From positions 160 through 64,159 of the forward strand of contig SCTI01000002.1 of the NCBI GenBank assembly GCA_004297735.1: a stretch of 64,000 bases of DNA. The letters are read 5' to 3'. The DNA is from Patescibacteria group bacterium (GTDB lineage: Bacteria > Patescibacteriota > Saccharimonadia > UBA4664 > SCTI01). The translations under genes were made by a program, and so were the position numbers. Of the stretch, positions 2,161-62,936 are shown piece after piece. Below the pieces are notes generated by a model, which was given only the letters and a program-made list of their open reading frames with translations, was not told the DNA's origin and ran no database searches. Every line of letters starts with the position of its first letter. The first letter of the stretch is position 1.

Positions 2161-2188
2161 AAAAAGACCACCTAATCAGTGGTCTTTT
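2161..2188. terminator. Bidirectional intrinsic terminator
   Basis: AAAAAGACCAC-ctaatca-GTGGTCTTTT has a 7-bp stem flanked by an A-run and a T-run. It lies just after the stop of the 2246..2539 gene. Confidence 0.7.
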
Positions 2189-2245
2189 ACAATAATTGCT
2201 GGGGTTGGCGCATGTAGGGCTACTGCCCCACCTGCGCCGGAACGG

Positions 2246-2539
2246 CTACCCCAAGCGGCGCATCTCGTCGATCATGCCGTCGATCTCGCGAACGCGATTG
2301 CGTCGATGCCGACGCCCACCGTGGCGGACCGGAGGCTCGTGGAGACTCTTGGTCACCTCCTGCGGGCTGCATCCCCTCTCGCGAGCGATATAGCCGACAC
2401 GTAGCGCGGCCTGTTCGTAGCTGAGCCGATCGTCCACCGAAATCTCGTGCAGGGTCGGAACTGGGAAGCCCCACTCGATTAGGAGCCGTTTCGCATCCTG
2501 TTCCGAAAGCGTCTGATTCAAGTCAGGTGCAACTGTCAT
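2246..2539 (-). CDS. GC-rich hypothetical protein, 97 aa, basic C-terminus
   Basis: ATG at 2539 is preceded by GGAGGTCACGCCGT. The sequence is MTVAPDLNQTLSEQDAKRLLIEWGF...RHGGRRHRRNRVREIDGMIDEMRRLG. It is much more GC-rich than its neighbours and no family was recognised. Confidence 0.6.
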   Translation of the reverse strand: MTVAPDLNQTLSEQDAKRLLIEWGFPVPTLHEISVDDRLSYEQAALRVGYIARERGCSPQEVTKSLHEPPVRHGGRRHRRNRVREIDGMIDEMRRLG

Positions 2540-2579
2540 ACGGCGTGACCTCCGTGGTCGTTTGGGTACCGTTGCTGTG

Positions 2580-2608
2580 ATTTTACAGATGTGAGCGTGT
2601 TTTGTCAA
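2580..2608 (-). promoter_or_regulatory. Sigma70-type promoter, ATTGACAAAA family
   Basis: Minus strand: TTGACA (2608-2603), 17 nt, TAAAAT (2585-2580). The context is AGTATTGACAAAAC. Confidence 0.65.
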
Positions 2609-2647
2609 TACTGTTAAACAAGTTTGACGAACAATATTAAATAATGA

Positions 2648-59357: not shown

Positions 59358-59434
59358 TACTCCTCCTCGCAATTGGTGACCCAACAAAAAAGAGTCCGCT
59401 TGGACTCCCTACTGCGTTTGCTTGTGCGTTTAAG

Positions 59435-59527
59435 CTACGATGAAGTCCGAGGTTGATGGCCAAGCATCAGCAGGCCGCTCACGACGAGCAGGACTACGGT
59501 GACGAGACTGTTACCAACGGTCTTCAT
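59435..59527 (-). CDS. Candidate 30-aa hydrophobic peptide (not in the ORF track)
   Basis: MKTVGNSLVTVVLLVVSGLLMLGHQPRTSS. Preceded by TTGACA-17 nt-TAGTCT. There is no clear SD, although GGAGG lies inside the promoter spacer. Confidence 0.3.
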   Translation of the reverse strand: MKTVGNSLVTVVLLVVSGLLMLGHQPRTSS

Positions 59528-59764
59528 ACGGCTTAGACTACGCCTCCAATTTAATGATGTCAACAGATTAAGATAAGAAAGTTTCGGACCGGGCCCGACG
59601 CCTTCCCTTTGCAGAGAAAGTGTCGGAACCCAGCCCGTGTCTGCCCTCGGCCGTCAACCGAAGGCTAGATGTAGATCACTATCCTTTCCACCCCTGGTCG
59701 TGATCAAAATACCAAGGGATAACCTCGCCGACGGGATGCCGGCAAGACTGCTGCGACGGACGAC

Positions 59765-62700
59765 CTAGCTGCAGCCGGCGGTGCTGCCACAGCTATTGCA
59801 GACGGGGCAAGGCCCACCCTTGCGAACCATCAAGCCACCGCAATCGGAACAGATGCCCGCCACGGACAGGCCGAGGTAGGTAAGCGGCTGCTCCGCAGGC
59901 GAATCCGGCTTGCTACCGTCACCGGTTGTCGAAACAGCAAGCTCCTGCTGAGCTGCCTCCGCGTACTCGACCGGAGTCGACCCACCGGCATCCTCAGCCA
60001 TCTTGCGCTTGCGCACCTCAGGCGTCAAGATGCCGAGCTCCTCCTGGACATCCGTATCCAGGAAGCGGCTGGCCAGCCAGCGCATGATGTAGTCCGGCAG
60101 ACTCTTGGCGAACGGGATCTCGATGTTCTCGGTGATCCCTTCCGGCTCGAATCGCACGAAGCTGAACTTCTCCACCAGCGTCTCAAGCGGCACCCCGTAC
60201 TGGAGCGCGATCGAGATCGCCGTGGCGAAGGAGTTCATCATGCCCTTGAGCGCTGAGCCTTCCTTGCCGAGACCGTTGATGAAGATCTCTCCCATCGTCC
60301 CGTCCTCGTACATACCGGCCACAATGTAGCCTTCGTGACCTCCGAGGACGAACTTGTGAGTGATCGACTTGCGCTCCCGCGGCATCCTCCGGCGAGCCGG
60401 TGTGCCGCGAGCGATCTCGACGAGGATCAGGGTGATCATCTCCGACTCGTCCGCCGTCAGGACCTTGCGGTCACCAATGAGGGACTCGTAGAGATCGCCG
60501 ACTGCCTTGAGTGTGGGCACGCCCTTGATCAGGGCATGCTCGAACACCTCGCACAAGGCCTCGACCGCCGCGCGCTGGATCGGCTCGCCGAGCTCAACGC
60601 CCGACTCGCCCTTACCCATCTGCGCGTCCGTGCGCAGCGCCTGGGCGGTCTTGGACCCATCGCGGTAGATGGCCAGAGCCTTGACGCCGAGGCGCCAGGC
60701 CTGGGTGTACGCGTCAGCGATGTCCTCGACGGTGGTCTCCTGCGGCATGTTGACCGTCTTGGAGATCGCACCGCTGATGAACGGCTGAACCGCACCCATC
60801 ATCTTGATGTGGCCCATGTGGCTGATCGCCCGCTCGCCGACCGCGACATCGAACACCGGCAGGTGCTTCGGGTCGAGACCCGGAGCGCCGATGATCGTGC
60901 CGTGCTCGGTGATGTACTCCTCGATGACCTCGATCTTCTGGTCGTTGTACCCGAGGGTACGCAGAGCCAGCGGAACCGTCCGGTTAGGGATGGTCATCTG
61001 ACCGCCACCAACCAGCTCCTTGAACTTGACCAGCGAGAAGTCCGGCTCGACGCCGGTGGTGTCGCAGTCCATCAGGAACGAGATCGTCCCCGTCGGTGCG
61101 AGCACCGTGGCCTGCGCGTTGCGGTAGCCGTGCTGCTCGCCGAGCGTGACCGCCTGATGCCAGGCAAGGCGCGCCTCGGCCAGCAGATCCATGTCACGAA
61201 TGTGACCATCCGGGATCTGCTGTGCGGCGTCATGGTGCATCCGCATCACCTTGTTGTGCGGCTCGCGGTTATCGGCGTACCTGTCGTACGGACCGATGGC
61301 CGCCGCGATCTTGGCCGACTGAGCGTAAGCCCGACCGGTCATGAGCGCGGTGATGGCCGCCGCCGTTGCCCGACCCTTGTCGGAGTCGTACGGCATGCCG
61401 TTGGCCATCAGGTAGGCACCGAGGTTGGCGTACCCCAGGCCGAGCTGACGGAACGCTCGCGCGTTATCACCGATCTCCTCCGTCGGGTAGGACGAAGGGC
61501 CAACGATGATCTCCTGCGCCAGGAACACGATGTCCACCGCTTGCTTGAAGCGCTCGGTGTCGAACGTGCCATCCTCACGCCGGAACTTCATCAGGTTCAG
61601 CGAGGCCAGGTTGCAGGCCGAGTCATCGACATGCATGTACTCGCTGCACGGGTTCGAGGCGTTGATGCGCCCCGAGTTCGGATCGGTGTGCCACTGGTTG
61701 ATGGTGGTGTCGTACTGCACGCCAGGGTCGGCACAGCGCCAGGCCGCCTCCGCGATGTCTCGCATCAGGTCCCGAGCCGGAATCGGATCGCCGACCGGAT
61801 CCCCGGTCTTGCGAGCGATCAGGTGCCAGTCCTCGTCGTTCTCGACCGCCTGCATGAACTCGTCCGACACGCGGACCGAGTTGTTGGCGTTCTGGTACTG
61901 AACGTGCCTGAAGCCGCGACCGTCGATGGACATGTCGAAGCCCTTTTCCTGCAGAGCCCCGGCCACCTCTTCGGCCTCGACCTTACACCAGATGAACTCC
62001 CGGATGTCCGGGTGGTCCACGTCCAGCACTACCATCTTGGCCGCCCGACGTGTCTTGCCGCCGGACTTGATGGTGCCGGCCCAGGAGTCGGCGCCACGCA
62101 TGAACGACACCGGTCCGCTGGCCGTGCCGCCCTTGCTCAGCGGCTCCATCGAACCGCGGATCGCCGACAGGTTGATGCCGGAACCGGAGCCGCCGCGGAA
62201 GATCTTACCCTCCCGCGTGTTCCAGTCCAGGATCGAATCCATCGTGTCCTCGACACTCAGGATGAAGCAGGCCGAGCACTGCGGGTTCTCTTCGAACCCG
62301 ACGTTGAACCAGACCGGGCTGTTGAAAGCCGCCGCCTGGTCCAGCAGCAGGAAGAGCAGCTCGTCGTAGAAGATCGAGGCCGGGTGATCGGGCTCCTGCT
62401 CACGCAGAACCTCGATCTTCCCCCGCCCAGGACCGAAGTAGCCCCTGGCCATACCCCACTGGGTGATGGTCTTGGCAACCCGGCCGGTCATCTGCCTGAC
62501 CGAGCGCTCACGCGTCGGTGAGCCCAGCTGTCCGCGGAAGTACTTCTGCGCCACGATGTTGGTGGCGTTCTGGCTCCACAACTTCGGGAACTCGACGTCC
62601 TTCTGCTCGAACGCGACCTTGTCGCCGTGACCGATGCGCGCGTCACGGGTCTCCCAGTCGACGGTGTCGAACGGGTGCACGCCCTCCTTGGTGAAGTAGC

Positions 62701-62782
62701 GCGTGATCTTGAGAGGCTTGCTAGCTACGCCGTTATGGGGCGCCGCCAGCGTCTGCTGACCTTCGGTTTCGGTCGATGCCAT
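59765..62782 (-). CDS. nrdJ: Adenosylcobalamin-dependent ribonucleoside-diphosphate/triphosphate reductase, class II
   Basis: 1005 aa with FNSPVWFN, a thiyl-radical loop SNPCSEY, and a C-terminal Cys cluster (CSDCGG...CPVCNSCGSTAGCS). Overall it resembles long actinobacterial-type NrdJ. It is strongly GC-rich. Confidence 0.9.
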   Translation of the reverse strand: MASTETEGQQTLAAPHNGVASKPLKITRYFTKEGVHPFDTVDWETRDARIGHGDKVAFEQKDVEFPKLWSQNATNIVAQKYFRGQLGSPTRERSVRQMTGRVAKTITQWGMARGYFGPGRGKIEVLREQEPDHPASIFYDELLFLLLDQAAAFNSPVWFNVGFEENPQCSACFILSVEDTMDSILDWNTREGKIFRGGSGSGINLSAIRGSMEPLSKGGTASGPVSFMRGADSWAGTIKSGGKTRRAAKMVVLDVDHPDIREFIWCKVEAEEVAGALQEKGFDMSIDGRGFRHVQYQNANNSVRVSDEFMQAVENDEDWHLIARKTGDPVGDPIPARDLMRDIAEAAWRCADPGVQYDTTINQWHTDPNSGRINASNPCSEYMHVDDSACNLASLNLMKFRREDGTFDTERFKQAVDIVFLAQEIIVGPSSYPTEEIGDNARAFRQLGLGYANLGAYLMANGMPYDSDKGRATAAAITALMTGRAYAQSAKIAAAIGPYDRYADNREPHNKVMRMHHDAAQQIPDGHIRDMDLLAEARLAWHQAVTLGEQHGYRNAQATVLAPTGTISFLMDCDTTGVEPDFSLVKFKELVGGGQMTIPNRTVPLALRTLGYNDQKIEVIEEYITEHGTIIGAPGLDPKHLPVFDVAVGERAISHMGHIKMMGAVQPFISGAISKTVNMPQETTVEDIADAYTQAWRLGVKALAIYRDGSKTAQALRTDAQMGKGESGVELGEPIQRAAVEALCEVFEHALIKGVPTLKAVGDLYESLIGDRKVLTADESEMITLILVEIARGTPARRRMPRERKSITHKFVLGGHEGYIVAGMYEDGTMGEIFINGLGKEGSALKGMMNSFATAISIALQYGVPLETLVEKFSFVRFEPEGITENIEIPFAKSLPDYIMRWLASRFLDTDVQEELGILTPEVRKRKMAEDAGGSTPVEYAEAAQQELAVSTTGDGSKPDSPAEQPLTYLGLSVAGICSDCGGLMVRKGGPCPVCNSCGSTAGCS

Positions 62783-62936
62783 TGAGCATCTTCCCCTTTC
62801 TGCCTACAGGCAGTCGTTGATAGGCTGCCTGGCGGCAGTACTACGTAGTTGGCTTGTCAAAGACCTTTCGGATACAAACGTACTGTTAGATACCCGTGAG
62901 ATGGCTGCGCGAAGCAGCTACCACACGGACCCCCAA

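Follow-up and report, generated by a model that had tools for sequence, protein, structure and literature searches.

Replacement of a gene in situ by a homologue of foreign descent, known as xenologous displacement, is widely documented for ribonucleotide reductases (RNRs) and for aminoacyl-tRNA synthetases. A second described system comprises the islands that target tRNA or transfer-messenger RNA (tmRNA) genes and the integrative and conjugative elements (ICEs) of Actinobacteria. Both kinds of system have counterparts in a stretch of 64,000 nucleotides from a Patescibacteria group bacterium (contig SCTI01000002.1 of assembly GCA_004297735.1, positions 160 to 64,159), which is analysed here and referred to as the window. 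Three GC-rich loci stand out in it: nrdJ, which encodes an RNR; a small element with a large serine recombinase; and an orphan gene. These patches are probably foreign DNA with three separate histories, in which nrdJ was replaced, a recombinase element entered, and the orphan gene was exchanged. Compositional islands, RNR replacement by xenologous displacement, integration at tRNA sites and recombination among relatives are all known kinds of events; specific to this case are the donor order, the variety of GC-rich RNR genes that have come to fill a single slot, and the presence of an actinobacterial-type serine-integrase element in a Patescibacterium.

As in described displacements, an essential gene, the native nrdJ, appears to have given way to a distant homologue that shares its function and chromosomal position, with the neighbour and regulator nrdR kept, and the evidence consists of phylogenetic discordance and atypical composition. 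It differs from them in that the recipient is an epibiont with a reduced genome and that the donor clade belongs to the phylum of all cultured Saccharibacteria hosts. The recombinase element resembles tRNA/tmRNA-targeting islands and actinobacterial ICEs by an integrase beside a tRNA-like 3' end, a putative imperfect repeat at the far end, foreign composition and absence in close relatives. Unlike them, it carries a large serine recombinase instead of the usual tyrosine integrase, sits at a 67-nt tRNA-Ala-like element rejected by ARAGORN instead of a functional tRNA, and spans only 2.7 kb of a Patescibacterium genome without detectable excision, replication or transfer genes. The recombinase itself shares three domains and a catalytic-serine motif with the Ccr proteins of SCCmec, XisF and phage serine integrases, with weak NCBIfam similarity to CcrB, CcrC and XisF; however, its equivalog scores fall far under the cut-offs (112 versus 900 bits) and its nearest sequences, 44-51% identical, are uncharacterised. 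Because of these low scores, it was assigned to no named subfamily.

According to PMC11659515, hosts are known for only a handful of cultured Saccharibacteria, all of them Actinobacteria, while the hosts proposed for environmental lineages on the grounds of co-occurrence or gene transfer lack experimental validation. Horizontal transfer has been used for such a guess in the case of clade G6 and streptococci (PMC8386444). In both sources, as here, genes that are shared with a candidate host group or resemble it in composition were read as traces of association, and both describe such proposals as not yet validated by experiment. A limited literature search returned no report of a link between Saccharimonadia and Solirubrobacterales, or of RNR transfer into Saccharibacteria.

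A preliminary description of the window, read from its letters, had proposed a mosaic of five GC-rich inserts. Its hand counts of 60-nt lines (26, 33, 31, 42 and 37) and of codons with G or C at the third position (27 of 30) were all reproduced exactly, and the contrast in composition is real, but the clearly foreign loci are three and not five. The GC content of the whole window is 53.4%; the five listed intervals sum to 10,329 bp at 59-62% GC, against 52.0% for the remainder, so that a share of about one sixth holds for these intervals (16.1%) but the clearly atypical DNA is about 7.1 kb, or 11% of the window. In a per-gene analysis of 52 backbone genes, GC at third codon positions (GC3) was 0.575 ± 0.046 with a maximum of 0.69. 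It rose to 0.91 in the orphan-gene region at 18195-19517 (z = 7.4, binomial p = 2e-53), 0.86 in nrdJ at 59765-62782 (z = 6.2, p = 2e-79), and 0.78 in the recombinase gene at 53269-54948 (z = 4.4, p = 2e-22), and the main tetranucleotide outliers were the same three loci. Ribosomal genes and the other housekeeping genes of the window did not show this third-position excess. Long antisense open reading frames (ORFs) at 18198-19646, 60335-62521 and 53728-54405 mirror the GC3 bias and are spurious, as had been suspected.

The backbone had also been tentatively taken for that of a Saccharibacteria-type organism, and the window is indeed a chromosome segment of Saccharimonadia (Saccharibacteria, Patescibacteria). 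Its IleRS finds its best matches, at 72% identity, in metagenome-assembled genomes (MAGs) of Saccharimonadales and Saccharimonadia, and the gene order nrdR-[RNR]-yggT-ileS-ftsW-rplU was seen again at dozens of Saccharimonadia loci. Other genes of the window include mraW, mraZ, several aminoacyl-tRNA synthetases, prfB, secA, mreB, parAB and a sortase. In the two sister genomes that cover the nrdJ locus (L082 and L084), the identity to the proteins of the window is 83% for IleRS, 89% for FtsW and 92-93% for NrdR. ARAGORN called no tRNA gene, and no Rfam family reached its gathering threshold, in the 64 kb of this gene-dense chromosome; the tRNA-like elements described below emerged only from visual inspection and from searches at E-value thresholds.

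The nrdJ gene in the nrdR slot

The nrdJ gene (59765-62782, minus strand; GC 0.64, GC3 0.86) encodes 1005 residues with the Pfam domains PF02867 Ribonuc_red_lgC (E = 2e-140), PF08471 Ribonuc_red_2_N and PF12637 TSCPD. It matches NCBIfam NF005122 over its full length with 1333.7 bits (cut-off 859) and TIGR02504 with 594.6 (cut-off 399.95), and its translation contains the NPCSE active-site loop. By domains and curated score, it is thus predicted to be a class II, adenosylcobalamin (B12)-dependent RNR. To its left in the conserved order lies nrdR (62937-63401, minus strand; GC3 0.55, as in the backbone), which carries the Pfam Zn_ribbon_NrdR and ATP-cone domains and is the fixed neighbour of the RNR slot across Saccharimonadia. 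The 154-bp leader between the two genes (62783-62936, minus strand) has a backbone-like GC content of about 0.51, is conserved with both sisters, and contains a TTGACA-type box and two CTGCC...GGCAG hairpins; a search with Rfam at gathering score found no cobalamin riboswitch ahead of the gene. The GC content steps within about 100 bp of both gene ends. The idea that each insert sits in a gap between essential genes did not hold for nrdJ, which instead replaces the gene at a slot conserved across the class. It is an in-place replacement common to a small clade and not a gap insertion.

The closest relatives of this NrdJ, at 76% identity, are P0002 and P0003, encoded between nrdR and yggT/ileS on the sister contigs L082/L083 and L084, where the genes keep a GC3 of 0.88. 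These are followed, at about 72%, by proteins of Solirubrobacteraceae MAGs and by a cluster with Svornostia abyssi among its members, and the named best matches outside the sisters are Solirubrobacterales at 68-72%; over trimmed columns, the identity to the nearest actinobacterial protein is 79%. In nine more distant Saccharimonadia, an nrdJ about 50% identical to that of the window and of native GC content lies between nrdR and ileS. Other GC-rich nrdJ genes, with GC3 of 0.75-0.90, occupy the same slot in L002, L011, L036 and probably L008, and a GC-rich gene of about 28% identity does so in L027 and L029, that of L029 being typed as another nrdJ subfamily (PRK08665-like). In seven relatives, the RNR is absent from the slot. 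The occurrence of at least three kinds of GC-rich RNR at one position in relatives suggests repeated replacement, although it does not prove it. No leftover fragments of a native nrdJ were found in a search of the window.

Trees of nrdJ were made by neighbour-joining with bootstrap, using simple and gamma-corrected distances. The native Saccharimonadia clade was split from an actinobacterial-type clade at a bootstrap of 100, and the window with L082 and L084 formed a group (90-99) within the latter, beside Svornostia/P0022 (52-82). Among 624 columns near-invariant in 16 actinobacterial sequences, the window clade shares two derived states; when variable columns were added, it had 12 shared derived states versus 41 found in the window sequence only. 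This proportion of few shared to many private states suggests that the gene was taken up from Actinobacteria not long before these lineages diverged. An actinobacterial origin of nrdJ is well supported by sequence comparison, and the high-GC actinobacterial source proposed earlier for the inserts stands for this gene, is plausible for the recombinase element, and does not extend to the orphan gene, which has no actinobacterial relative. The protein of the window also carries a private insertion of 13 residues (…GPGRGKIEVLREQEPDHPAS…) at residues ~118-135 (62255-62295), which is missing from the sisters, all sampled Actinobacteria and the native Saccharimonadia; together with 41 private substitutions at otherwise near-invariant positions, this indicates fast evolution since the transfer. 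Sliding protein identity along NrdJ gave hints of mosaicism, which are ambiguous. In the mechanism we propose, a gene from a Solirubrobacterales-like actinobacterium would have replaced the native nrdJ in place, downstream of nrdR, with the leader of native composition retained; the replacement would date back to the common ancestor that this genome shares with its two sisters, or to an earlier time, and the protein would have changed unusually fast since.

How often such genes were acquired bears on what the donor can tell. The best matches of the L002 NrdJ are also Solirubrobacterales (Baekduia, Conexibacter and Solirubrobacteraceae, 67-69%), and with gamma-corrected distances L002 grouped with Baekduia/Conexibacter (78) and shared with them an RTA…FKQ motif, at whose site the window clade retains the RDARIGHGDKVAFEQ form of the Svornostia set. 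Derived residues common to L002, L036 and the window clade were found at one or two sites, as compared with 62-82 private ones. These counts, and the different groups in which L002 and the window clade fall, favour two or more separate acquisitions, in which different Solirubrobacterales lineages supplied the gene for this slot, as far as the sequences can tell. Alternatively, the ancestor of a large Saccharimonadia subclade would have acquired an actinobacterial nrdJ once, long ago, and passed it on vertically, in which case the donor would be uninformative on present hosts. This seems rather unlikely, even though relatives with an IleRS identity of at least 64% all have either a GC-rich nrdJ or an empty slot, with the native type restricted to more distant ones, simple distances give L002 and L036 a basal place in the actinobacterial-type clade, and fast recipients combined with slow donors can imitate independent origins. 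Against it stand the small number of shared derived sites and the differing affiliations just described; the retention of GC3 of 0.75-0.90 where synonymous sites of the backbone are near saturation; and the two further relatives that hold a different GC-rich nrdJ subfamily in the slot.

The junctions of the foreign DNA were checked against two independent Logan contigs of the same sample (SRR8426595), which are 100% identical to the window over 47269-61002 and 62298-64000. Since these contigs contain the junctions of nrdJ with the backbone and those of the recombinase element, the junctions are not assembly artefacts. The Logan assembly was interrupted on both sides of the nrdJ core at ~61050-62298 (1.25 kb), possibly by k-mers shared with a co-occurring actinobacterial nrdJ; if this is the cause, a donor-like organism may occur in the same sample.

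The recombinase element and its tRNA-Ala-like site

Between ftsW and ileS lies the presumed remnant of an integrative element of 2,707 bp and 0.60 GC (52243-54949), which is specific to this strain. Homology with the sisters L084 and L082 ends at 54950 and restarts at 52242, and the element is missing at this site in both, their ileS-ftsW gap being 307 bp and 169 bp, respectively. The preliminary description had allowed that orthologues might sit at the same positions with the same composition in relatives; this was found for nrdJ and the orphan gene (GC3 0.88 in sisters) but not for the recombinase element. Its main gene, a large serine recombinase or integrase (53269-55002, plus strand; GC3 0.78 over 53269-54948), has the domains PF00239 Resolvase, PF07508 Recombinase and PF13408 Zn_ribbon_recom, a YLRVSS catalytic-serine motif in its translation and a match to PHROG 95 integrase (E = 1e-96). 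The best homologues among 1.84 billion representatives are 44-51% identical. Two small ORFs accompany it, one of 61 residues (52468-52653, plus strand) and an acidic one of 108 residues (52700-53026, minus strand), neither with a significant match in Pfam, PHROGs, NCBIfam or PADLOC. As functions for excision, replication or transfer were not detected in these searches, the locus is called a remnant or minimal element and not an ICE.

The 3' tail of the recombinase ORF enters, on the opposite strand, a tRNA-Ala-like or tmRNA-tRNA-like-domain (TLD)-like element of 67-70 nt (54947-55016, minus strand), which is the putative attachment point. Its acceptor stem is GGGGCUG/CAGCUCC and includes G3-U70; it also has a T arm and a single internal hairpin. 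ARAGORN called neither a tRNA nor a tmRNA there, and the Rfam tmRNA model scored 32.6 bits (gathering 47) by its ends only, with the 312-position middle missing. The element would act like a tRNA-type attachment site, but it is annotated here neither as a tRNA nor as a tmRNA gene. It is kept in L084 with an encoded ACCA and is missing from L082, and its 3' 24 nt equal the 3' end of a tRNA-Ala from a Frankia MAG except at one position. The insertion point was mapped to the end of …CAGCTCCA, with a single integrated copy. At the far end, 52250-52300 (minus strand), a degenerate copy of the T arm, acceptor and CCA (…CCCCAACAGTTCCACCA…) was found, with pattern matches of a 13-mer at 52276-52288 and an 11-mer at 52273-52283 (two mismatches and one, respectively). 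This copy is probably the displaced original 3' end, forming an imperfect direct repeat.

The 16-nt mid-part of the tRNA-Ala-like element (GGACCGATAATCTTCG) recurs ~145 nt upstream at 55124-55139 (minus strand), just past the ileS terminator. In L084 (17721-17790), both copies bear the same three substitutions (GACTAACAATCTTCG), which keep the hairpin of the element paired by changing G-U to G-C, U-G to U-A and G-C to G-U. Elsewhere in the window, a second tRNA-like minihelix at 40092-40152 (plus strand), GGTGCTA…TGGGGTTCGATTCCCCATAGCTCCACCA, was likewise not called by ARAGORN and gave only sub-threshold Rfam matches of mascRNA/tmRNA type; downstream of it come a terminator hairpin and, 68 nt past the end of the minihelix, an isolated CAGCTCCACCA fragment at 40220-40230 (plus strand). 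The minihelix resembles the scar of a further attachment site, or else it and the first element may belong to a small family of tRNA-like elements.

The setting of the recombinase gene recurs among its homologues, whose ORFs converge on the 3' end of a tRNA-Ala, tRNA-Ser or tmRNA in all four distinct contexts examined. One is a tRNA-Ala(GGC) on a contig labelled Frankia sp. with 72% GC, a locus present in a second assembly too; another is a tRNA-Ser on a contig of 70% GC; and a third is a tmRNA on a contig of 66% GC (L170), beside TraG-, relaxase-, ArdA-, HTH- (helix-turn-helix) and ImmA-like genes. The fourth context holds the closest recombinase (51%), which abuts a tRNA-Ala(GGC) in L166 at 1-3583 (GCA_040960395.1, JBFOMM010000636.1). 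There, an island of HTH, ImmA-like peptidase and recombinase genes has 62-64% GC, whereas its flanking genes have 41-46% and the genome 44%. This is a second GC-rich element of the same recombinase family in a low-GC genome and parallels the window. Our reading is that an integrative element from a family typical of high-GC bacteria was captured at this tRNA-Ala-like site and is present in minimal or decayed form; GC content and one MAG label make an actinobacterial origin plausible. In the proposed course of events, a small integrative element would have entered this strain alone at the tRNA-Ala-like 3' end between ileS and ftsW, and would then have been reduced to a remnant of the integrase and two small ORFs.

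A source in phages or plasmids of the Saccharimonadia themselves, instead of cellular Actinobacteria, was considered for all the inserts. Ribonucleotide reductase genes are frequent phage cargo, the recombinase matches a phage integrase family in PHROG 95, and the orphan gene has no cellular homologue. Such a source is nonetheless improbable: 2.9 million viral contigs contained no relative of the recombinase or of the 97-residue ORF described below, deposited phages and plasmids are only 24-30% identical to the recombinase, and the named neighbours of nrdJ lie on chromosome-size Solirubrobacterales contigs such as the 5.06-Mb record of Svornostia abyssi. Furthermore, Pfam and PHROGs revealed no structural phage genes in or beside any of the loci.

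The orphan gene between secA and prfB

The third locus is a gene for a predicted secreted protein rich in Cys, Pro and Thr (18195-19607, minus strand; 470 residues, or 440 from the second Met; GC 0.65, GC3 ~0.9), with a signal-anchor-like N-terminus, many cysteines and runs of proline and threonine. It had no family match in Pfam, PHROGs or PADLOC, and an AlphaFold2 model from a two-sequence alignment was unusable (mean pLDDT 33). Among 5.8 billion clusters, its only homologue was P0139 (87%), which is encoded at the corresponding position of L165, a sister locus that shares its sample with L084; the genes there follow the order of the window, namely secA, small ORFs, C39-like gene, orphan, 233-residue gene, prfB. 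No actinobacterial or other non-sister relative was detected in this search, which needs shared words of five residues, and an actinobacterial origin of the orphan gene is unsupported. The L165 copy has a GC3 of 0.88 and differs from that of the window at 29, 24 and 88 first, second and third codon positions; this pattern indicates a genuine coding sequence subject to purifying selection.

Along the alignment of the window with L165, the backbone has an identity of ~0.75-0.83 (about 79%), whereas a tract of ~2.1 kb at 17750-19850 reaches ~91% (0.85-0.96 in a sliding profile). Besides the orphan gene, the tract takes in the AT-rich non-coding sequence on either side of it and the initial part of the adjacent gene. 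At 4-fold sites, the orphan gene reaches an identity of 0.78 and nrdJ one of 0.72-0.74, compared with 0.46-0.55 for genes of the backbone. Since GC-rich nrdJ pairs from distant relatives reach only 0.50-0.52, the excess is not explained by codon bias alone. The simplest reading of these profiles is that the orphan cassette moved between related Saccharimonadia after their divergence by homologous recombination; nrdJ may likewise have been exchanged, with support from 4-fold sites only and an equivocal nucleotide profile. The proposed step is that the gene would have been swapped among related Saccharimonadia through recombination in its flanks.

Next to the orphan gene lies a gene for a predicted secreted, papain-fold protein of Peptidase_C39_2 type (20033-20956, minus strand; PF13529, E = 3e-9; 82% amino-acid identity to L165), whose GC3 is 0.63; its extra GC sits at the second codon position and so reflects amino-acid content and not foreign codons. 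An ORF of 95 residues with a signal-peptide-like start (21143-21430, minus strand) has a GC3 of 0.76 (p = 2e-4), and its coding status is uncertain because it is a different frame that is conserved in L165. The variable stretch between secA and prfB (17308-21430) encodes only predicted secreted or surface proteins, including one of 242 residues with an LPxTG-like C-terminus and a weak DUF11 match, and could be a host-interaction gene cluster. In a metagenome scan with SecA, relatives among the matches listed were at most 59% identical; the secA…prfB neighbourhood was conserved, the gap was variable, and no close synteny was seen.

That no transfer took place, the GC-rich genes being native and their composition due to amino-acid content, codon selection for expression or biased gene conversion, is very unlikely. 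The sisters do retain the same high GC3, synonymous divergence is below that of the backbone, as codon constraint predicts, in distant relatives the native nrdJ slightly exceeds its surrounding locus in GC content, and amino-acid content does account for the GC at 20033-20956 and 49247-50635 (GC at second codon positions, GC2, 0.54-0.57). However, the excess of the three loci lies at third positions (0.78-0.91 versus 0.575 ± 0.046) and is not shared by housekeeping genes, the nrdJ of the window is phylogenetically actinobacterial while a separate native clade exists, the recombinase element is missing in the sisters, and the AT-rich flanks of the orphan gene are also more identical, which codon constraint cannot explain. 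Misjoining or misbinning of GC-rich pieces from a co-occurring actinobacterial genome is largely refuted and hardly credible: although the Logan break inside nrdJ (~61.0-62.3 kb) could stem from k-mers shared with a co-occurring actinobacterial nrdJ, and residues 251-350 of the window NrdJ are nearer to Svornostia-type sequences than to its sister, both nrdJ and both island junctions recur at 100% identity in independent contigs, sisters from other samples hold the GC-rich nrdJ and orphan gene at the same positions, GC3 along nrdJ is even (0.82-0.91, save 0.74 in the last sub-window), and the closest actinobacterial sequence in 5.8 billion clusters is only ~72% identical.

Several points weigh against the reading of the three loci as foreign DNA with separate histories. 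The nrdJ trees are by neighbour-joining only, and the place of the window clade beside Svornostia is moderately supported (52-82). With its best actinobacterial match at just ~72% identity (79% over trimmed columns), nrdJ has no close donor among the sampled sequences. For the recombinase, identity to known sequences does not exceed 51%, and the only homologue with a taxon name bears it as a MAG label (Frankia sp.). Long direct repeats are not normal for serine integrases, and the repeat here is degenerate. The orphan gene is without any actinobacterial homologue within the reach of a word-limited search, and its low synonymous divergence, like that of nrdJ, may in part be codon-bias constraint, which a crude baseline correction lessens but does not remove. 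With these points taken into account, foreign DNA of three separate histories is still the reading that we regard as probable.

Weaker loci and the question of the host

The remaining loci that had been listed are weak or ordinary. An ORF of 97 residues in the gap between mraZ and a class II aminoacyl-tRNA synthetase gene (2246-2539, minus strand; GC 0.62, GC3 0.71, p = 0.005) is a weak outlier without a match in Pfam, PHROGs, NCBIfam, PADLOC or the viral contigs. One of 56 residues between mreB and a class II aminoacyl-tRNA synthetase gene (33340-33510, plus strand; GC 0.60), with a hairpin 3' of it, has a GC3 of 0.67 that is not significant (p = 0.13), and the ORF at 59067-59387 uses backbone-like codons (GC3 0.65). 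For the small ORFs, the orphan and the C39-like protein, the only match in PHROGs, NCBIfam and PADLOC was a non-credible one to Csx3 (E = 0.009). Exact-sequence look-ups of MreB and MraZ for sister loci of the regions at ~33.3 kb and 2.3 kb returned no match, the start codons of the queries being probably wrong.

A rise in GC at 48400-50635 (0.58-0.59), not listed before, covers a sortase gene and a gene for a 462-residue Big_13 Ig-like surface protein (49247-50635). The latter has a GC2 of 0.57 and a GC3 of 0.58, which points to amino-acid composition and not to foreign codons, and the sisters conserve the protein poorly (66% along a portion of the sequence). At 26287-27822 (minus strand) lies a gene of normal GC for a class I lysyl-tRNA synthetase; its product is 59% identical to that of L165 (1367-2941), compared with 84-93% for its neighbours, and nucleotide identity falls to 0.50-0.62 over ~26.9-27.7 kb. 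This may be an allele replacement invisible to composition.

For the three foreign stretches themselves, composition, synteny, the pattern of presence and absence, the nested place of nrdJ in the trees and the arrangement of recombinase and tRNA were read directly, while from them we infer the direction and timing of transfer, the uptake of host DNA as the route, and the identity of donors with physical hosts; on this last point, the preliminary description had been equally cautious. The three stretches may help to name the host of the genome. A testable lead is provided by a named donor order, Solirubrobacterales, for the gene of an essential enzyme, along with a mobile element of actinobacterial type. 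More tentatively, soil or aquatic Saccharimonadia might repeatedly overwrite the RNR of the nrdR slot with alleles of Solirubrobacterales hosts, presumably by uptake of host DNA, and GC-rich acquisitions, the orphan gene included, might sweep among the epibionts by recombination. If this were true, genes that are GC3 outliers would serve as a practical tracer of host identity for uncultured Saccharimonadia, and integrative elements of Actinobacteria could cross into Patescibacteria via tRNA-Ala-like sites. Apart from this scenario, foreign genes of the window look younger at synonymous sites than the backbone, and this points to ongoing recombination in organisms often deemed genetically isolated.

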